Assembly (NCBI GenBank): GCA_010093605.1
Contig: MU004183.1
Span: 868,001 to 932,000 of the forward strand
Origin: Lophium mytilinum
Lineage: Eukaryota
DNA length: 64,000 nt
Direction: 5' to 3'
Position 1 is the stretch's first letter, and each line of letters begins with the position of its first letter. The notes beneath the pieces are model-generated. The model was not told where the DNA came from. It saw only the letters and a list, made by a program, of their open reading frames with translations, and ran no database searches. The position numbers and the translations under genes were made by a program. Shown here piece after piece: positions 9,340-51,138 of this stretch.

Positions 9340-10563
9340 ATGCAACTGCGGTCCGGTAGAGAGGCGCAGGCCGGCGGCCCCAACGAAGTAAGAATCTCCC
9401 CCCGGTTCCGTGTCTGAAGACAATCGCTGACTGTTGATCGTAGCAAGCGCAAGAGGAACGATAACGCCACTCCAAGCACTCCCGGTGCGAAGCGGCCTAA
9501 GTTTGACCCGACAAAGCCTCAGCAGGGACAAGCCAACAGTTCGCAGACTGATCCACAGATGATCACAACGCCTCCCGCCAAACCTTGGGAGCCGACGGGA
9601 CCGTTTCGCTTTCTCGACCTCCCCAGAGAGCTTCGTGATGTGGTGTATGGTCACATCTTCAACTCACTCCCTGGTGAAGTATCAGAGTCTAAATCACCGA
9701 CCATCGTAAAGCCCGCCAAAGGGGAAGGCCCAGTATACGACCGTCCGGATTTCCGGCTTCAAAAAAGTCATGTAATCATTCAGTCCTGCAAACAGGTGCA
9801 CGAAGAGGTGAAGGACACCATATACGGCCTTCATACTTTCTCGATCACGCTAGACAAGCAGCATCCCCACTTCCATTGTCCCCTCCATGCAACACATCGA
9901 ACCGACGGAAGCAAGATTCCCCTTCCAAGCAACGCGGCGAATGCAGACATAGAAGACGCTTTCATGGACGAGGATTTGTTGGTTCGCCCACCCGTCGTTC
10001 AATACAATGGTCCTTTTCGAGGCTGGATGACCCGCAGGGCCTGTTACAATCGCAGACCAAGGACGCAACATGGATGGGACCTCACTGCAGTCCGCAAGCT
10101 GAACCTTAAGCTCGATCTTGCTCTAGGAAGAGAGCACTACGTGCTGTTCAACAATCGCGTACCCGACGTCTACAAACATTTGTCCAACTTTTCTTTCAGG
10201 GGTCTCTATGCAATGAAGGAGCTGCAAGATCTCTGCGTATCAATCGCGTACGGCCCTGATTGTCCTCCAGCACTTTTGGCATTTTTTGAAGGAAACGGCA
10301 AGGCCCTCGTCAAGGTACGCGAGCTGATACGGACTCTGATGGCCTCAATCCCGAAGACTGTGAACAACGTCCGGTGGAATTTCACGAAATCCGAATACGA
10401 CGTTGAATGGACTGTGGGCAATGCATTCCAAGTCAAAGGATGGACTGAAGTAAACGGGAATTTTTTGGAGAAGCTCGCGAAGGAGTTCGAGGCGTGCCGT
10501 GGTATGGACGCTGAATACTTCCAGGAAGAGGCCGAGGCGGAGGTCGAGGCAGAGAATGAATAA
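9340..10563 (+). CDS. F-box-like (DUF7730-like) protein, paralogue B
   Basis: MQLRSG start 9340, intron from 9388 (acceptor 9443 or 9447); GPFRFLDLPRELRDVVY, GWDLTAVRKL, SIPKTV..VRW, RGMDAEYF. Confidence 0.78.
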
Positions 10564-19957: not shown

Positions 19958-20329
19958 GATGTCTCTGGTGAAGGATCACAGCCCTCCCGGGTCGCAGGAA
20001 GAAGTATACGTAGTCACTTTCGCATCGTGGGCGTGGTCTTCAGCCTCCACGTCGAAGTTGACGTCCGCAGTGATTTGTCGTATTCAAAACAGAGTACATT
20101 CCTTGGCGTTTTTCTCCGTGCACCCCCCCTAATTTTATATAAGCGCGCCTGGGATTATAGATAGGTTATACCTTAATTTTTAACTACTTTTTAATATACC
20201 TACTTTAATTATTAGTAAGGCCTCTTATATATATATTAGAGCTTATATACTAATAATTTTTAGTATTTCTAGTATAAGTTAATAACTTTATCTATAGTTA
20301 AATCCTTCTCTCTACTAGCGCGTAAACCT

Positions 20330-21400
20330 AACTCTAGAATTAAACCCTAATATTAGCCTTATAGCGCCTAGATATTATATAGCTTCTCTAGCTTAATAAG
20401 TACTTTAAATAGATTACTAAGGTTATTTATATCTACTAGAAAATAGTATATAATATAGAAAAATATATAATTCTTTATAGCGCGCCTATAAGGCCTCTAT
20501 AAATTAAGATAGAATAGCTAAAAAGGCTTATTATAGTAGATAAAAAGGTAGTACTCTAATAGCTTCTAGAAGATAGCTAGTATAATTAAGATAAAATTTA
20601 AATATAGCTTAATCTTAAGTATAGTATTAGAGCTTTATAGCTAACTATATTATATATAATAAAGAGAAATAAATAGAATAAGAAGTAGGCCTAGCGCTAG
20701 TTAAACTATATAAGTAAGAAGTTAAGGTTAAAGTACTTAGAGCTTACTAGTTACTATAAGCTAGAAGATCTTATTTTTCTTAATAAGTCTATCTTTAATA
20801 AAAAGACTAGCTAGTACTATTATATATATATATCTATTAGAAGTTCTACGCGCTACTAGGGGCCTATAAATTATAGAAATATATAGAGTATATATATAGT
20901 AATAAGTATAGTAGAGTAGCTACTATATATAGCTATATAAGAGGGCTACTTTAATACTAAGAAGTTTTAAAGCTAGATTATTACTACTTTTATACTAGCT
21001 ATAGAAGGTAAGTTTAAGAGCCGCTTAAAGGTTATTATTCTAGATAATATTAAAATATATACTAAGAAAGCTCTTATATATATAATCTAGGCGTAAGAAT
21101 ATCTAGTATATTTTCTACTACTATACTTACTAGATTTTAACTCTATAAAGTTAACCTTTACTATACTAAAGATATAGATCCATAGGCATTACTATTACCT
21201 ACACCTAGCCTATTATAACTTTAGTAACTTTCTAAGGGCTACTATTAAGTAGAGCTAGTATAATTACTTTACTTAAAAGTAGTTCTATTATATAGCTAGA
21301 GAAGTATACTATATAAGAAAAAAGATAGATAGAATTTAAACTAAGCTAAATATATATAAGAGAGGTAATACTAATACTTAAATTAAAAAGAAGTAGATAA
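20330..21400 (+). pseudogene. Tc1/IS630-type DDE transposase relic (boundaries approximate)
   Basis: Reversing RIP transitions gives, in one frame, LIFLDESIFNEKTGW (20770), VIILDNxKIH (D at 21043) and FLPPYSPDFNPIE (E at 21148), i.e. D34E spacing. Confidence 0.85.
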
Positions 21401-23499
21401 AGAAGTAGATTAAAACCTAAGTATATACTATATATAGCCTTTCTATTTAATATATACTCTATATATAGCCTTACTATTTTTTATATACTCTCTAGACTAA
21501 AACTTAAGTATTAGCGCTAGTAGATAATCTAAGGCTTAAGTATTAGCGCTAGCAGATAATCTATAGCTTATATATTAGTATAGAGTAAAGTTATATAGTA
21601 AAGCTTAATAGCTATTATTTATTTTTCTATATATTCTTACCTCTTTTTTAACTCTCTTTTTTCTTTAGACTCTATATACTATTAATTACTACCTTTATAA
21701 TACTATAGCTAATAATACTATAGCTAATAATACTAGTAATTAGAGCTCTATTAATAGCCTAATTAATAATATTCTTATAGAGCCCTTCTTCTCTTTACCT
21801 CTTACTATGTACCCCTTTAGGCTTCTTAGAGTTTACCTAGATTCTCTAGTAATATAGGTAGTAGTAGCTAGGCCGCTTCTTACTAAGAAGAAGATAATAG
21901 GCGTTTAAGCTAAAGATAAGGCGCTAGAAGCTTTCTCTAGTAAGAGCCTAGAGAATTCTAGCCCTTAAAGGCTTTATATAGTGCGTAGTAGGCCTATATA
22001 TCTTCTTTCTACTCTTACTATTAGTAGAGATATCTATAATATACCTAATTAGAAGAAGAATAAGAATAAGAAAAAAGAAAAGAGAACTAATCCCTCTCTA
22101 CTATATATAATTTCTAGTATAGTAGCTTAAGAATCTAGCTAACCTATTTATATAGAAAGCGCTGCACTTACTATCTACTCTCTCCCCTTACTATTACTAT
22201 TATTCTAGGCCTGCTAACTCCCTCTTAGTATACTAATAACCTTACTACCGCCCTTAGCTTCTCTACTATTACTATAGCCCTCTAAGAGCACTTCTACTGC
22301 GCTAAGCTCGCCTATATAGAGCTTATTAATAGCTAATATAGCTAGAATTAGATAGGCCTAGCCTATAGTATATATCTAGAGTGCGCCTAGAATATACCTA
22401 CTAGAGGCTATTATTAGTATAATATTAATTTCTATACTAATAATAATCTAGGTAGTAAATATAGTATATATAGGGTTAGAAGTAAGCGCTATACTTAGAT
22501 TAATACTGCGGGAGATATAGTAGTATTTAAGTAGGCTCTAAAGCCTAGGGCTAGTTATGCTAGAAGAAAAAAGTAGAGAATTAAGTCTATTTAACTATAT
22601 ACTTAGAAACTATAACTATAACTTTAAAAGTTTATTACTACTAATTAATATTTCTATATATTTAGCATGCGGATATAAATATATATATCTAAACGCGTAA
22701 TTTAGCTATCTATTTATATAATTTAAACTTATATTTACTAAGATATAATAAAGTAATATATTTTATTTCTATATAGCCTTTCTATTTTATATATACTCTA
22801 TATAGTATNNNNNNNNNNGCTAGTTATACTAGAAGAAAAAAGTAGAGAATTAAGCCTATTTAACTATATACTTAGAAACTATAACTATAACTTTAAAAGT
22901 TTATTACTACTAATTAATATTTCTATATATTTAGCATGCGGATATAAATATATATATCTAAACGCGTAATTTAGCTATCTATTTATATAATTTAAACTTA
23001 TATTTACTAAGATATAATAAAGTAATATATTTTATTTCTATATAGCCTTTCTATTTTATATATACTCTATATAGTATCTAACTTAAGGCTTAAGTATTAG
23101 TAGTAAGAATCTTATTTTAATATTTTATAGCTTAAGTATTAGTAGTAAGAATCTTATTTTAATATTTTAAGGCTTAAATATTAGCGTAGGGTAAATTTCC
23201 TCTACGCTAATACTTAAGCCTTAAAATAGAATTCTTACTACTAATACTTAAGCTATAAAATATTAAAATAGAATCCTTACTACTAATACTTAAGCTATAA
23301 GATATTAAGATATATTTTTATATTTTACCTATACTAATACTTAAGCCTTAAACTATAAATACTCTCTAATTAATAAATAGTATATATATTATAGGTAGTA
23401 TATATTAGATAGATAGTATATATTTATTACTACGCGCTCTACCCCCTATTATCTAGTAGAGTAAGATTAAACGCCGCTTTATTTTTCTAGTATAGCTAC

Positions 23500-25375
23500 T
23501 TAAATCTATATAGCTTCTTAGTAAACTTTATAGCTATTCTATTTAATATTTCTAGCTATATAGTTTTATAATATGCCTTTAAGCTTCTATTTATTATCTA
23601 ATAGAGAAAATCTATATTTTAAGCCTAATTTATTACTACCTAGGCCGCCTACTACTAGTGCTAGTATAAACTAGCGTTTTATATACTATTAACTTTCTAA
23701 TAAAAAAATACCTCTAGTATATCTATATTCTCCTCTTTAGAGTATACTAGGCTTAAGCTCTTTAGTTAGTAAAGTTCTATAGTAGCCGGGGTATAAGTTA
23801 AGAGCGCTAGTAGTAGAGAAGAAGAAAGAGAAGGTATAAATATAGGCGTAGGTGCCGGCGCATATAGAAATACTAGATACCTAGTAGAAATATATAGATT
23901 TAGTAGATAATAAAGTAGTAGAAAAGAGAGAGAATAGTAGCTATACTACTACTATTAAGGCTATAACTAAGGCTATAACTAAGACTATAATAGAGGCTAC
24001 TATATACTTAAAAATCTCTTAGCTATAGCTATTATCTATTATATACTACTAAACTCTATAGTCTACTTTATTATTACCTTAATATTATCTATAGTACTTA
24101 CTATCTACTATACTTTTATTATCTTTACTAGCTAATAATATTCTAAATCTATAGGTCTATTTATTTAAAGCTTCTTTAATAATTTAATTAGAGGCACTAA
24201 TATAGTAGCCTTACTATATACTATAGTATTAGCCTATACCTTCTACTACTTAGTAAGTATAATAAAGTGCTTACTACTATTAAGAAAGTAGTAGCTATTA
24301 AAGTTACTATACTCTTTATTAGTATACTTCTAATACTATATTAGGTCTATATTATAGTCTCTTATATTAGTAATTCTACTTATTATAGCTTTATACTACT
24401 ATAGCAGCTTCCTACTATAACTCTTAGGCGTAGCTATAGCTAGTAAGAACTTAGGCGTAATTAACTTTCTAGATAGATTAGATAGAACTTTATATATAAA
24501 TAGAAGCGCTATAGTATTCTTTTAGAAGACTATTTACTTTATATTAAGGGCTATAAATAATCTATTAAAAGAGAATATAGAGAAGTTATCTATATTATAT
24601 ATTTATATACCGCCTTTACTATTTAAAGTATATAGTACTATAGTATAGAAAGTAATAATATACTCTATCTAGTAGTTACTATTAGCCTGCACCTTTATAA
24701 CTAGCTTATTAAGTTCTAGCTTAATATTATTACTAGAGAGGCTAAACTATATTTTTATATCTACTATCTTACTACCCGCCTTCTTCTTATTAATAAATAG
24801 CTAGAATAATAGATTAATATTATAGTCTAGAGAACTAGTAGATATTAGTAGTAATATTAATACTATATACTTATAGCGCGCTAGAGTACTAAAAGTAGAA
24901 GAGAATATAAAGAGTAGTACTCTACCTCTATTTAGTAGTAATAATAGTAGTAGGCCTAGTATAGAGTTATAACTATTTTAAATCTTTTTATTTTATACTA
25001 CTTCTTCTTACTACTATACTATCTTCTTTTACTATTACGCTACCTCCTCTTATACCGCGCGCTATCTATCTATTACTATAGCCTTACGCGTAGCCTTTTT
25101 AGCTACTTAAGCCTTATACTATAGTCTATTCTTTCTTTCTCTTACTATTTTAGCTAAAAGATTTATATCTAGTCTTATAGTAGCTTTAATAGTAGCTTAG
25201 CTATTATTAAAGTATATATACTTCTCTCTCTATTTAGTAGTCTATATATTCTCTAGTATAACTCTAAGTAATTCTATAAAAGTATCTACTTCTTCTCTTT
25301 CTTCTCTTTTTTCTCTTCCTCCTCTTTCTCTACCTTCTCTAGCCGCCGGCGGGTCTCTAGAGCGTTAGGTATTAT
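23500..25375 (-). pseudogene. RIP-destroyed cargo ORF of the transposon (coiled-coil plus Cys/His domain; boundaries approximate)
   Basis: De-RIPped minus strand gives a K/E/Q-rich N-terminus and WKCTxKECSNFNGYCFLDGGKHF..QQKVWANAI.HGEAT..PP at ~24332-24190. Confidence 0.55.
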
Positions 25376-25727
25376 TATTAAAAGTTATACTATATTAAGA
25401 ATATTATAGTAGTACTAGAATACTAGAAATTATTAGTATATAAGCTTTAATATATATATAAGAGGCCTTACTAGTAGCTAATATAGATATATTAAAAAGT
25501 AGTTAAAAATTAATATATAACCTATCTAATAATCCTAGGCGCGCGCTTATAAAATTAGGGGGGGTGCACAGAGAAAAACGCTAAGGAATGTACTCCGTTT
25601 TGAATACGACAAATCGGCGCCGGGAAGCCCCGTGCACCCAGCCCCTGTCACTTCCCGACGTTTCTTTGCACGAGCTCGCTCTGTGAACACCTCACTCCTT
25701 CACCATCGCCGCTCCATACAGAGCCCA

Positions 25728-30061: not shown

Positions 30062-30142
30062 TGACTCATCAGCGCTAGTCGTTTTAATCGACTCGGTAGT
30101 GGGGCGTTATAGTCGATTAAAACGACTAGCGCTGATGAGTCA
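30062..30142. repeat. Perfect 32-bp inverted repeat with 17-nt spacer
   Basis: TGACTCATCAGCGCTAGTCGTTTTAATCGACT (30062-30093) and its exact reverse complement (30111-30142). Confidence 0.95.
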
Positions 30143-38544: not shown

Positions 38545-39540
38545 GTGAATGGGAGTGAAAGTAACGAATCGAACCGCGCTGGTTTCCATTTTATAGAGGC
38601 TGAGTAGGAATACAAGGGCTTTGTGTGCCACACTGCGTAACCTTCTGAGGGCTAAATGCGAGTAAAAGTAACAAATCGAACCGAAAGGTTTTCGCTTTTA
38701 CTAGACGCGGTGCTAGGGGATAAACACGCTGCGTGCCATACACCCCTGGTGTCTATTATCCAAGAATGTGAATAAAAGTTACAACTCGACCCGTAAGGGT
38801 TTTAGTTTGCTAGACCTTAGGTCAGGGGATAACACGCTGCGAGCTACACACCACGGGTGTCTGATATCTAACAATGTGAGTAGAAGTAACAGATCAAACC
38901 GCGAGGATTTCGGTTTAAGTGGGGCTAGGGGATACATACGCTGGGTATGTGCTATACACCACGGGTGCCCATTATCCAACAATGTAAGTAAAAGTGACAA
39001 ATCGAACTGTAATTATTTTGGGTTTACTAGACATTAGGATAGAGGATAAACACGCTGTGTGCAATATACTACAGGTGTACACTATCCAACAATGTAAGTA
39101 AAAGTAACAAATTGAACCGCGAAGATTTCGGGTTTTTAGACGTGGAGTTAGGGGATAAACATAACGCGTGCTACTTACCACGGGTGTCTATTATCCAATA
39201 ATGTAAGTACAAGTAATAAATCAAACTATAAAAATTTCTATTTTGCTAGGCATTAGATTAGGATATATACACGCTGTAGCCTATACACCACAGGTGCCTA
39301 TTATCTAACAACATGAGTAAAAGTAACATATTGAACCGCCAAGTTTTTAATTCTGCTGGACGTGGAGTTAGGGGTAAACACGCAGCGTACCACAGACCAC
39401 GGGTACCCATCAACCAACAATATGAGTGAAAGTAACGGATCGAACTGCAAAAGCCGTGATCTGTCAACCGCGCTGAGTATCACACACTATGGGTGCCCTT
39501 TCTACAATAATGTGAGTACATGTAACGAATCGAACCGCAA
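38545..39540. repeat. Tandem satellite, ~10 copies of ~109 bp
   Basis: GTAAC-type anchor (AAGTAACAAATCGAACCGC) at 38561, 38668, 38778, 38886, 38994, 39104, 39213, 39323, 39432, 39522. Confidence 0.92.
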
Positions 39541-40253
39541 AATCCGCGGTCGCGTACCGGAACAAGTATACTGCGCCCCTCCCTCACAAGCTAGCTACAC
39601 TTCCTCCATCAACGTGACCCTGGGCAACGCACCAAACGCTGTCGAGCTGGAGTGGTAGCCGGCTTGTAAGTGATAACAGTGGTACTACAACAAGCCGTCA
39701 CATGAAAGAGGGAGTAAAAAATATCAAGACCCAAAAAGCAACGAACCGCGTTCCATTTTTAGTTATCACAAATGCCTGACTTTCCCAATCAGCAGCAGCA
39801 CACACACACAGACATCAACAATATCGCGCCACACCGCTCCAGTCCGATCCGAGCCATTCCAAGCAGAAACCCACAACCAAAACCAATACCACACCGCTAT
39901 CCGCTCCATGCGCAGATATGAGCCAGGAGACTCCATTACATTCCGCCCAAAATCGATTCAGTTGTCCAACCAAGCGAGCATCGTCGCAACCGAAAACAAT
40001 AACAAAAATGTCAAAAGATGAAAAAGGCAAAGACGAGAGCCGGATCCGACCCAAGCTTTAAAAAAGTCTCAGATGAACTTCCAGCTCATCAAAAAATCCA
40101 ATGGCAATACAATTCTTTTTTTGAACGCGGTGAGATGTGACAGAGTGCTAAAGCACAGTCGGGACAGTACGAAAAGTTGAAAACGAGCAAATTTAAGATG
40201 CAAGATTTATCATATAAGTACAGCCTCTAACTTTGAAATGACGAGGGTAGGCG

Positions 40254-45490: not shown

Positions 45491-45703
45491 CCTCTGACCT
45501 AAATTTTCGACCACTTATTCAGAACACAGAACCCACCACTCTCAAGTTGTCTCATCTTCGAAACACACAAAAAGCATTACTTATTGAACTCACTCAACAG
45601 CTTCTTGTAGCCCATATTGCGATGCGCATGAAACATGGCATCCTGTTTCGCTTAGTGCTCAAAAAACGAAGCCCTTCATAAAGTAGATACTCTAGCAAGA
45701 CTA

Positions 45704-45908
45704 CCGTATTCTCTGAGATTATACAAAAGCCACGCTTGGCAGCGCTATCTTAACCTTACTCGTTGAGCGAATCATGTCACGCCTATCAAGCTGATTTGTG
45801 GGCCTGTCGGCGCCCATCGGCGTGTGACAGCTCGATTTCCCGATAAACTATACGCTTATAGGCTTAGGGGTGCCAAGCGTGGCTTTTGTATATTCTCAAA
45901 GAATACGG
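45704..45908. mobile_element. Tc1/mariner-type MITE, 205 bp
   Basis: ~38-bp TIR CCGTATTCTCTGAGATTATACAAAAGCCACGCTTGGCA (2 mismatches), TA on both sides. Confidence 0.9.
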
Positions 45909-46211
45909 TATCCAGTAACATACGCCAACACTTAGGATCACCGCCCCAGTCGCGCTCGGTGATACTACTTAGCCGTTATCGCGGATAAATCCCTGAGTTA
46001 AGATTGACTCGATTTGTGTGGTCGGCGCGGCATGTTTTTCCGGGCCGCATCTAGTCCCAATGCGCACTAGCAGATCGCGGGGTGAGTCGATTTTTTGGCA
46101 GGTAGGATCTTAAACATCCAGCGGAGCCTCGAGGTGACTCTGCGCAAGCAAACCTCGAGTATCCAACCCTCCATTCCTATCTGCCCTCTACAGACGACCA
46201 TCGCAAATACC

Positions 46212-48289: not shown

Positions 48290-49303
48290 ATGACCGACGC
48301 CAGCCAAGTCTCCCTACATCATGGTAGGAAGCGGACGAAGATGGCCCCTCCGTGGAGGCATCCGTCATTTCGCTTTCTCGATCTCCCGCGAGAGATTCGC
48401 GACATCGTGTACGGCATCCTCATGACGAACTCGAGGTCCGGGTCCGAGGGTCTCTTCCATAGCATCAAAGACCGGCATGCTCCAAAGGCACGTCTCAAGT
48501 CACGCCCTGGACGACCGCTGAAGCCTCGAACCGCCCTCTTGTGCGTTAACAAGCAGATCTATGAGGAAGCGAAGGAAGCCTTATACACCAACAACGTCTT
48601 CTCTGTTGCACTCGCTCAGAACAACTTGCGTTTTACCAATAAGCCGGTGCCTGGGCCCTTCAGATTCGAAGCTATTCTTCCTGGCGCATCCAAGGCGCAC
48701 AACGAAGCTTTCCACAACGAATTCGACAGAAAAGTAGTAGCTCCATCCAAAAACGAATGCCCTTCCCAGCCCGCCATTCCTTTCGGGTGGGATCTCACTG
48801 CGATCCGCTACCTCCACGTGCAGATATATTTGGAGGATACCGAGCTCGAGTATGCTCAATCTGAACCGTGCTACTCAGGAGCATACGCACAGATGTCAAA
48901 GCTGTCGTGGGAGAGTTTCCACAAAATGGGGAAGTTGGTCAATCTGAGTGTTAGACTTCTCTTCCTAGATGATTCTCCACCGACGCTCTTGAGGTTTTGT
49001 CTCGGAATTGGGCCAGCACCAATGCAACTACGACATATGCTGAGAGGTCTGGTGGCTGCGGTGCCGCGGAGTGCAGGAGAGATTCGTTGGGGATGCGGGG
49101 TTACGAAGGATGAACTCAAGTGGTTCGAGAAGGTCGAACGTAGCGCCGAGCATTTCGCCTTCAACGACTTCGACGGTAACTCGTACGAAATGGTGGACGG
49201 CAAGGCGCTAGAGAAGTTGGTCGTTGGTCTAGATGCGATCAGAGGCATAGATGCTGACTACGAGGCCGAATATCCTGCTGAGAGGGAGGCAGAGGAGATG
49301 TAA
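48290..49303 (+). CDS. F-box-like (DUF7730-like) protein, paralogue C
   Basis: SFRFLDLPREIRDIVY, TALLCVNKQIYEEAKEALY, GWDLTAIRYL, IRWG, RGIDADY. Confidence 0.8.
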   Translation: MTDASQVSLHHGRKRTKMAPPWRHPSFRFLDLPREIRDIVYGILMTNSRSGSEGLFHSIKDRHAPKARLKSRPGRPLKPRTALLCVNKQIYEEAKEALYTNNVFSVALAQNNLRFTNKPVPGPFRFEAILPGASKAHNEAFHNEFDRKVVAPSKNECPSQPAIPFGWDLTAIRYLHVQIYLEDTELEYAQSEPCYSGAYAQMSKLSWESFHKMGKLVNLSVRLLFLDDSPPTLLRFCLGIGPAPMQLRHMLRGLVAAVPRSAGEIRWGCGVTKDELKWFEKVERSAEHFAFNDFDGNSYEMVDGKALEKLVVGLDAIRGIDADYEAEYPAEREAEEM

Positions 49304-49989: not shown

Positions 49990-51138
49990 ATGCAACTCCG
50001 ACCTCGTCCCGCAGCTAATGCGGCTACGGTTGCTAACACGCAGTCTCAATCCAAGTCAGTCTCATCTCTATCGGGCTTACCGCTACAAAATGCTTTGGTG
50101 TGCCGCGCTAACGACTCATGAAGGAAACGCAAGCGGAACGACAACGACAGTACCCAGCCAGCCAAGAAGCGAATAGTCAAGACGCAAGGCACCAAAAAAA
50201 TGCGTGCGATCGCAGTGAAGCCAGCGCCCTGGAAGCCAACCGGTCCCTTCAAATTCCTCGAGCTCCCTCGAGAACTCCGCGATATGGTCTACGACAAGAT
50301 CTTTGAGGACCTCCCAGAGCGCCATCCCTGGGGCAATCTTGTCCATGACGCTTCTGAAGCGCTCTTCTATCCATGGCGGGGAAGCCCTATGCTAGCCGGG
50401 CTCCTTGGCTATGATGACGTCCCCATCGCGTTGAATGGCCCTACTGCTGTTCTCCGGACTTGTAAGCAGGTGAACGAGGAAGCAAAGGAGGCGTTGTATC
50501 GCGATCGAATCTTCATCGCAACCTTCAACGAGATGAAGCGACGCTTTGGCTCCCGACGCCAACTACACTATGACCACCCTTTCCAACACATACCGAGTAG
50601 TGCCATCGACTGTCGGTGGGATTTCGCCTCTATCCGCCGCTTAGTCATTCTGTTCGACATGGGAGACGGCATGGCAGGAGAGGTTAACGACGACGATGGC
50701 CCCAACTTCGAATATTCGGGAGATATCCTGCTCTCTACAGCCTCATTCGAGGCCCTCCGCACTATGCCAAATCTGAAGGAACTACGCATTGGCATGACGT
50801 ACGACAGTGCAGCAGCACCGCAGCTGCTACGCTTCTTCAAGGGTGGGGATAAGGCACCATATCTCTTGCGTAACATGATGCGGTCTCTGATAGCGTCGAT
50901 CCCGAAGACCGTTCCTGTTGAGTGGGGACTCGCGGAGCAGGACTATCGCGATATGTTTTGGATGAACAGTGCAAAAGATGTGCGAGAGATGCAAATCTTT
51001 CAATGGGGCACAGTGGAGGGAAAGGTGCTGAAAGGACTGGCGGACGAGTTCGAAGGTCTCCGAGGGACCGATATCGACTACTACGCCGACGACGCGGATG
51101 TTGAGGGTTCGGAGACGTCGGGGAAGGATGTGAAGTAG
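49990..51138 (+). CDS. F-box-like (DUF7730-like) protein, paralogue D
   Basis: MQLRP start, phase-2 intron 50055-50123, KRKRNDN; GPFKFLELPRELRDMVY, SIPKTV, RGTDIDYY. Confidence 0.8.

Follow-up and report, generated by a model that had tools for sequence, protein, structure and literature searches.

A dead DD34E transposon of Lophium mytilinum with three modules between one pair of AT-bounded terminal inverted repeats

TA targeting and a single open reading frame (ORF) are the textbook marks of Tc1/mariner elements. Which element, then, is the AT-rich 5.5-kb block that lies amid otherwise ordinary fungal DNA at positions 20073–25614 of the window analysed here (64,000 nucleotides of Lophium mytilinum, assembly GCA_010093605.1, contig MU004183.1, forward-strand positions 868,001 to 932,000)? 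A sequence-only reading of the window had taken the block, placed at 20097..25590, for a cargo-carrying Tc1-type transposon with long terminal inverted repeats (TIRs) plus a TA duplication, and had named two ways in which this could be wrong: the extra ORFs might be separately nested elements, or two loci might have been joined at a gap of Ns. We found that a transposase gene (plus strand), a middle ORF (plus strand) and an accessory gene (minus strand) are enclosed by one TIR pair and have moved as a whole, and that all of the large copies examined have been wrecked by repeat-induced point mutation (RIP). We consider it probable, as regards architecture and history, that the block is a dead copy of a fungal cut-and-paste transposon of the IS630/Tc1/mariner (ITm) DD34E kind, from a two-gene lineage that gained a third gene. 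Its parts are listed below.

20073..20074: AT dinucleotide, probable 2-bp target-site duplication, left; AT at all ends of paired copies.
20075..20300, plus strand: left TIR, ~200–225 bp, beginning TTGTCG; identical start in 8/8 family-A copies.
20335..21400, plus strand: RIP-inactivated DD34E transposase; Pfam DDE_3, profile match, spacing of 34, codon-position transversions.
21420..21570, plus strand: repeats that bound the middle cassette on its left, a 35-nt unit plus a 13-nt motif present twice; alignment of 14 copies.
21670..22700, plus strand (strand inferred): relic of the middle ORF; stop counts, indel lengths, low divergence.
22809..23077: assembly artefact, a 10-N spacer and a second copy of 22550–22808; 2 mismatches in 259 nt.
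23079..23360: short repeats forming a palindromic array where the middle gene and the accessory gene end (3') towards each other; inverted repeats, alignment.
23440..25360, minus strand: RIP-inactivated accessory gene, ~640 codons; family match, codon-position transversions, convergent linkage.
25385..25612, minus strand: right TIR; inverted-repeat alignment.
25613..25614: AT dinucleotide, probable 2-bp target-site duplication, right; AT at all ends of paired copies.

The two TIRs align over 225 columns with 201 matches (15 of the differences being transitions), so that the long TIRs seen earlier were borne out. The inverted repeat reaches 20073 and 25614 in all eight copies of the family to which the window element belongs (family A), and the flanks are unrelated only outside the AT. 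The ends therefore had to be moved outwards by ~24 bp, and the TA at 20095–20096, previously read as the duplication, lies inside the TIR. RIP was confirmed by the index (CA+TG)/(AC+GT), which was 0.05–0.20 in five 1-kb bins inside the element vs 0.87–1.55 in bins wholly outside it, and by comparison of the eight copies, in which 910 columns differed by transitions only vs 60 with transversions.

The length, too, had been overstated. The stretch 22550–22808 recurs at 22819–23077 with 2 mismatches in 259 nt around a spacer of 10 N, and it is single in 11 of the 11 other copies tested; the real length is thus ~5.27 kb, and copies of the family measure 5.20–5.35 kb. Such a gap with a false duplication is also what the joining of two different loci might leave behind, which would make the multi-gene element an artefact. 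The tract to its left (21584–22668) differs from the copy on contig C4 at one site in 1.08 kb, while no other pair of copies has a mismatch-free run above ~290 columns. This near-identity reflects either assembly collapse or recent gene conversion, and because of it part of the window copy may have been assembled from the reads of another copy, a point that tells against our reconstruction. However, three N-free family-A copies are colinear with the window copy across the gap over 4.66 kb at 91–94% identity, and the module order between paired ends is unchanged in eight further uninterrupted copies, which belong to three families. The joining of two loci is refuted for the family, and is so improbable overall that we discount it for practical purposes.

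The 43-Mb genome was searched for copies. Family A has eight, with identical ends and unrelated flanks, which shows that it was the entire unit that moved. Two more families, B and C, have TIRs related to those of family A yet distinct, and in 11 fetched loci besides the window the transposase, middle ORF and accessory gene stand in the same order. The end pattern was matched 90 times in the genome; among these matches are no fewer than 24 short derivatives with paired ends (miniature inverted-repeat transposable elements, MITEs), most of them 310–630 bp long. Several side observations belong with these copies. Four family-A copies (L064/L065, L066/L067, L068/L069 and L070/L071) were split by later insertions of 8–27 kb, some of which have TG..CA-like ends under RIP and short duplications and are probably long-terminal-repeat retrotransposons. 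A fragmented fourth variant (L073–L075, G000:C17) is ~78% like family A and has the same three modules. One family-B MITE (L177:1099-4865, G000:C23) contains a ~3-kb un-RIPed element of the pogo/Fot1 type (Pfam DDE_1, E=9e-30).

Does the first module encode a transposase of the DD34E class? A single plus frame (20362–21378) matches the profile of 34 intact relatives over positions 9–347 of 351. Its catalytic positions lie at 20782, 21043 and 21148; exactly 34 residues separate the second of these (D) from the third (the E position), in agreement with the spacing noticed in the sequence-only reading. The E position reads E in six of the eight copies and K in the window copy; the first catalytic D reads N in all eight family-A copies and D in three family-C copies. 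Pfam DDE_3 (PF13358) was matched with E=2.8e-13 by the best copy and 0.0021 by the window copy, and the profile matched the Sleeping Beauty transposase 5cr4 with E=2.8e-4. The transposases of families A, B and C are only ~55% identical, and their transversions amount to 0.26–0.31 at third vs 0.08–0.10 at second codon positions. Proteins of Talaromyces, Rasamsonia and Paraphaeosphaeria are among the intact relatives. In a tree of 36 rows, made up of fungal relatives without family names and four bacterial-type rows, families A, B and C fell into a clade (100/98) with those fungal proteins and the two-gene metagenome locus L101; single-gene elements formed the sister clade, and other two-gene loci lay further out. 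The exact place of the three families is unsure, because these RIP-damaged rows have a deviant composition.

The convergent minus-strand ORF with a Cys/His motif also proved real, since the window copy matches the profile of intact homologues with E=3.3e-26. The motif reads W-x-C-x4-C-x-N-x4-C-x6-H..WAxAI..G.AT..PP, with its Cys3-His part at ~24190–24332. All three motif Cys codons read Tyr in the window copy, and across the eight copies the first Cys is read in one, the second in four and the third in none. Within the family this motif is conserved best, its Cys, Asn, His, Trp and Gly being kept in at least 90% of 25 intact homologues, and zinc binding by the Cys3-His part is putative on the basis of this conservation. 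A profile of 14 damaged copies retrieved 51 representatives from a 1.84-billion-sequence library; fungal names were found for three of the 19 homologues looked up (Mytilinidion, Pyrenula and Eremomyces), and the family-A consensus is 44% identical to the intact Mytilinidion protein. Charged N-terminus, beta-grasp-like domain, Cys3-His motif, coiled coil, proline-rich linker and helical SAM-like tail make up the predicted protein. No credible Pfam match was obtained for the 22 representatives scanned, nor any credible match in sequence searches of the PDB; PF08946, used to probe for kinship with the second ORF of the Pyrenophora element discussed below, was not matched at E up to 1 among 25 members, although coiled-coil matches of this sort are unstable.

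A structural model of the Mytilinidion protein (predicted local-distance difference test, pLDDT, 78.6; predicted template-modelling score, pTM, 0.37) showed a beta-grasp domain, a Cys/His module, a long helix and a helical tail. Foldseek returned nothing for the accessory models at E up to 0.001, in searches that did not include the Cys3-His module folded by itself; its rows for the middle domain were beta-grasp folds with E above that value. The top three structural rows for the beta-grasp domain were PB1 domains (Z 7.6, root-mean-square deviation (rmsd) 3.3–4.1, 88–98 aligned). The helical tail gave Z 5.5 with the tankyrase SAM domain (rmsd 3.0, 62 aligned) among unrelated helical rows, the named Atlas clusters for the tail were SAM at 0.84–0.89, under the bar of 0.9, and Pfam SAM did not match the C-terminus. 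These modelled PB1-like and SAM-like resemblances are weak leads only, a weakness that counts against our main reading.

To judge selection we used transversions, which RIP does not cause. Between families the accessory gene shows 0.35–0.41 at third vs 0.19–0.23 at second codon positions, and this third-position excess means that selection preserved the gene during the divergence of the families. All of its 35 matches in the genome are broken and coincide with element copies. Passive capture of a host gene (transduplication) would be a different origin for it. This is how a two-ORF Tc1/mariner element of Pyrenophora is read in the available part of its published description (PMC3538342), and some accessory homologues lie on long contigs, where their annotation is that of ordinary hypothetical genes. 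Against capture stand the purifying selection among three families whose accessory proteins are only ~33% identical, the lack of an intact host copy among the 35 genome matches and, in five unrelated foreign loci described below, the same orientation beside the transposase; we regard capture as improbable. On the sequence comparisons the gene, of a Pfam-less fungal family, has long belonged to the element and been kept there by selection.

The foreign loci came from metagenomes, as the best 80 of at least 593 profile-matching stretches. Sixteen were of fungal type by our own cut-off (>140 bits, 41–49% GC), and 13 of these were informative, with at least 550 nt downstream. The accessory gene was present in 5/13 informative loci, a small sample in which L097–L100 are 80–88% alike, and was always convergent and just downstream of the transposase; it was found in none of the 64 other loci among the 80. 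One of the five, L107 (9358–12422), is an intact-looking two-gene element of 3,065 bp within shared 144-bp TIRs. It has an apparent 3-bp TTA duplication (one locus), and the target therefore varies within the clade. Since the accessory gene faces an intact transposase in these five loci, it is not a nested element; it has no ends of its own, and the first of the two doubts raised at the outset does not hold for this gene. Look-ups of clusters of accessory homologues gave no locus-tag linkage. A harder point for our reading is that eight of the 13 informative relatives are without the accessory gene, four of them (L097–L100) being complete single-gene elements of 1.36–1.56 kb with homologous TIRs that start TTAGCG. 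Because these relatives are complete, the accessory gene is not needed in cis.

What, then, might the accessory protein do? We suggest, tentatively and with rather less than even confidence, that it is a dispensable trans-acting helper that would keep the element expressed or mobile against host silencing; this is the weakest step of our proposal. VANC and MURB play such a role for Mutator elements. The helper could act as a multivalent adaptor, with a basic tail, a zinc knuckle, a coiled coil and two modules that resemble the polymerising PB1 and SAM folds. It might instead be a direct co-factor of the transposase, acting in transpososome assembly or target choice and not on chromatin or silencing, as the second protein of PIF/Harbinger elements is a transposase co-factor. 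DD34E transposases from widely separated parts of the tree are paired with the accessory gene in one fixed, convergent arrangement, which would suit a co-factor, as would the unusual duplications of those two-gene cases whose ends are known (AT here, apparently TTA in L107). However, L098–L100, which are close relatives, have intact TIRs and 2-bp duplications and are complete with one gene, and the accessory gene diverges ~2-fold faster than the transposase at first plus second codon positions. We consider a co-factor role rather unlikely, and keep the helper as our working proposal.

Coding-like sequence had also been noted in the middle region, and it is indeed present there, in a cassette with a history of its own. 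In families A, B and C the stretch ~21420–23360 is nearly identical. The middle ORF has 0.000–0.020 interfamily transversions per site, vs 0.08–0.31 in the transposase and 0.19–0.41 in the accessory gene; the other genes of the three families differ 20–30 times more than the cassette. The ORF has ~330–345 codons, is proline-rich and ends in a hydrophobic C-terminal segment. Its plus frame contains 18 stops in 327 codons, where the five alternative frames have 23–53. Most of its indels have lengths divisible by three (18, 12, 6, 9 and 15; +4 and −1 are exceptions), in contrast to those of the spacers. Three observations weaken the case for this gene: in the consensus its antisense frame is nearly as open (19 vs 16 stops); it is too little diverged for a selection test; and no homologue was found among 8,000 word-sharing candidates of 187–625 amino acids, in a search that is weak for RIP-damaged queries and outside which lay the full HMMER library and the Atlas. 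It matches no Pfam family, and no host parent was found in the genome, the best match outside the element having E=0.22.

The borders of the cassette bear on how it arrived. A 35-nt unit is directly repeated on both sides (in the 21420–21570 region and at 23039–23073), and a 13-nt motif stands forward at 21502 and 21534 and in reverse at 23207–23334, where it also builds the central palindromic array common to the three families. Inverted repeats thus bracket the module, as they would if it were a separate nested non-autonomous element with inverted ends of its own; the module is, moreover, far younger than the flanking genes, and the intact two-gene relatives are without it and its repeats, the middle ORF having no match in the 80 metagenome loci. 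Nevertheless, all 27 significant matches to the module in the genome coincide with copies of A, B or C and none is solo, its position is the same in three families, which would be rare under independent insertion, and the 35-nt unit is repeated directly on its two sides. Nesting is distinctly unlikely, and even a module that was nested at its origin now travels as part of the element. We think it fairly likely that the middle gene was first acquired by one family, as a cassette flanked by direct repeats, and spread to the other two by recombination through the shared boundary repeats; on the simplest history, a two-gene element gained it once and recombination then carried it from family to family. 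The idea of a cargo-carrying Tc1 element hence needs to be divided: this is a multi-gene DD34E family, and the middle gene, apparently a cassette exchanged not long ago, fits the term cargo, but the accessory gene is an old selected part. Similarly, the transposase and accessory genes do start within ~70 bp of the inner ends of the TIRs, as had been seen, and that the TIRs drive them inward is suggested by position.

At what target does the element insert? Among 15 large copies with paired ends, AT was found at 30/30 ends, and 24/24 paired short derivatives likewise have it on either side, giving 39/39 pairs. Outside it, these 39 pairs show no TA and no longer duplication beyond chance matches of 1–2 nt. 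With the strict end pattern and no requirement for AT, ~75 ends by hand count had AT and one had GT, and none lacked the T. The near-invariance of AT (~75/76 strict ends) and the lack of a duplication outside it would also be expected if AT were the outermost part of the TIR, without a duplication, or if insertion occurred between the A and the T. The evidence of the relatives is different. The TIRs align gap-free to those of the single-gene relatives and of a sister MITE, and the outer two bases are TA..TA in L099 and L100, TT..TT in L098 and CT..CT in the sister MITE (L072:966-1495, G000:C4:1345265-1345794), which has family-A-like TIRs of ~80% identity and is the only one of its subtype found. 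As relatives with homologous TIRs have TA, TT or CT there, AT occupies the position of the duplication; TT and CT are not palindromic, and yet they are repeated on both sides. Markov models trained on held-out, unmutated DNA were used to score the 39 flank pairs. The scores fit an AT contributed by the host and lay above the no-AT expectation with p=0.099, 0.091, 0.021 and 0.028 for orders 3–6, a moderate support.

Other results do not favour this interpretation. The outer dinucleotides of L097 are unmatched (TT at one end, AA at the opposite one); the support from the Markov test is modest, two of its four orders being above p=0.05; to the flank statistics a duplicated AT and an insertion that splits the A from the T look alike; an empty site was not observed, the flank being present in just two sequencing runs, both from the probable source sample; and an ORF-continuity test on 15 sites gave no discrimination as to the empty site. 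Weighing these together, we regard AT as a tip of the TIR, or a site entered between its two bases, as unlikely, and hold that the transposase probably makes the usual 2-nt staggered cut at AT in place of TA, with AT as the target duplication. In the most likely sequence of events, the transposase bound the long TIRs and excised the whole unit, as the structure of the copies shows, and probably reinserted it at AT; MITEs sharing these ends may have moved in trans. RIP then killed every large copy examined.

The element is bordered on the left by a lunapark gene (Pfam Zn_ribbon_10) and on the right by a short divergent gene with no Pfam match, which looks like an LYR-motif gene. Elsewhere in the window, 38548–39552 holds 9–10 repeats with a period of 108–110 nt, several with a splice-donor-like word (GTGAGT or GTAAGT), perhaps repeated exon–intron units. 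A perfect 32-nt inverted repeat with a 17-nt loop lies at 30062–30142, and a 46-nt inverted repeat with arms 117 nt apart, possibly a small MITE, at 45702–45910. Three dispersed 47-nt matches in un-RIPed DNA (9604–9650, 48368–48414 and 50248–50294) presumably correspond to the start of F-box-like coding repeats.

In combination, the parts would describe an unnamed fungal ITm lineage with its own anti-silencing helper, of a new Cys3-His family whose polymerising modules are PB1-like and SAM-like, a target flipped from TA to AT and a cassette passed between families, a combined claim that is possible, though doubtful. If true, it would offer a DD34E enzyme whose dinucleotide target has changed naturally, together with a first case of a coding partner for AT-specific TIR elements of this class. 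Set beside close TA-targeting relatives, a strict-AT DD34E lineage would make it possible to locate the residues that recognise the target dinucleotide, a matter of interest for transposon tools. The accessory family, unannotated and under selection, occurs widely among fungi, and would be a fungal counterpart of the plant transposon anti-silencers if it counters silencing; the near-identical middle cassette would represent gene flow between diverged transposon families in one genome. The scope of these implications is limited by the large copies examined being all dead, and by a two-gene layout that is not wholly new in print. In the literature searched, which was mostly non-subscription and outside which lie Repbase and Dfam, we found no account of the accessory family or of an AT-targeting ITm element, and the available parts of PMC11544213, PMC5751038, PMC3562529, PMC5576322 and PMC12730594 contain no description of the element family.

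How does the element compare with known systems? With ITm DD34E/DDE_3 elements such as Tc1 and Sleeping Beauty it shares the D34E spacing, the DDE_3 domain, TIRs and a 2-bp terminal dinucleotide. It differs from them in having AT in 39/39 pairs, where TA is given as a shared ITm feature in the portion of PMC7325037 consulted, and in having three modules within one TIR pair in place of a single ORF. Its long TIRs and 5–6 kb length have a fungal precedent in Tc1-OP1, described in the available text of PMC11544213 as 5,659 bp long with 169-bp TIRs and one ORF. The 'Osmo-CC transduplication' of Pyrenophora tritici-repentis, according to the accessible part of its report (Manning et al. 2013, PMC3538342) a transcribed 3.4-kb two-ORF Tc1/Mariner element with 46 copies, shares a second, coiled-coil ORF between the TIRs and is close in size to L107; that part mentions no third gene or AT target and reads the element as host-gene capture. 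Likened by description and not by sequence, the Pyrenophora element may be of this lineage.

Dici1 and Dici2 of Diutina catenulata are fungal ITm DD34E elements with three coding sequences, one of them an orphan, as presented in the available part of PMC13469147. They are described there with a TA duplication, TIRs of 8 or 33 bp starting CAGT, a central transposase and a third coding sequence that is a transposase relic, and no Cys/His accessory protein is described in that part. We looked in the window element for a TA duplication, a CAGT or CACTA start and a central transposase and found none of these: unlike Dici, it has TTGTCG after the AT and its transposase beside the left TIR. The ciliate elements TBE1 and Tec, as summarized in the section of PMC7325037 seen, have a DD34E transposase, long TIRs and three ORFs with one on the opposite strand, but differ in their hosts and accessory genes (a site-specific recombinase in Tec). 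ATon of Aedes aegypti comprises AT-specific TIR elements first filed as TA-duplicating MITEs, in the available portion of PMC3422177, and shares with the window element the ambiguity between a duplication and insertion between A and T. The likeness is again by description: ATon is given there as non-autonomous with no transposase identified, whereas in this genome the AT-bounded MITEs are accompanied by coding partners. Fungal Tc1-like elements with two or three ORFs have been published before; what is added here is AT in place of TA, and a third, orphan cassette that is nearly identical across three diverged families.

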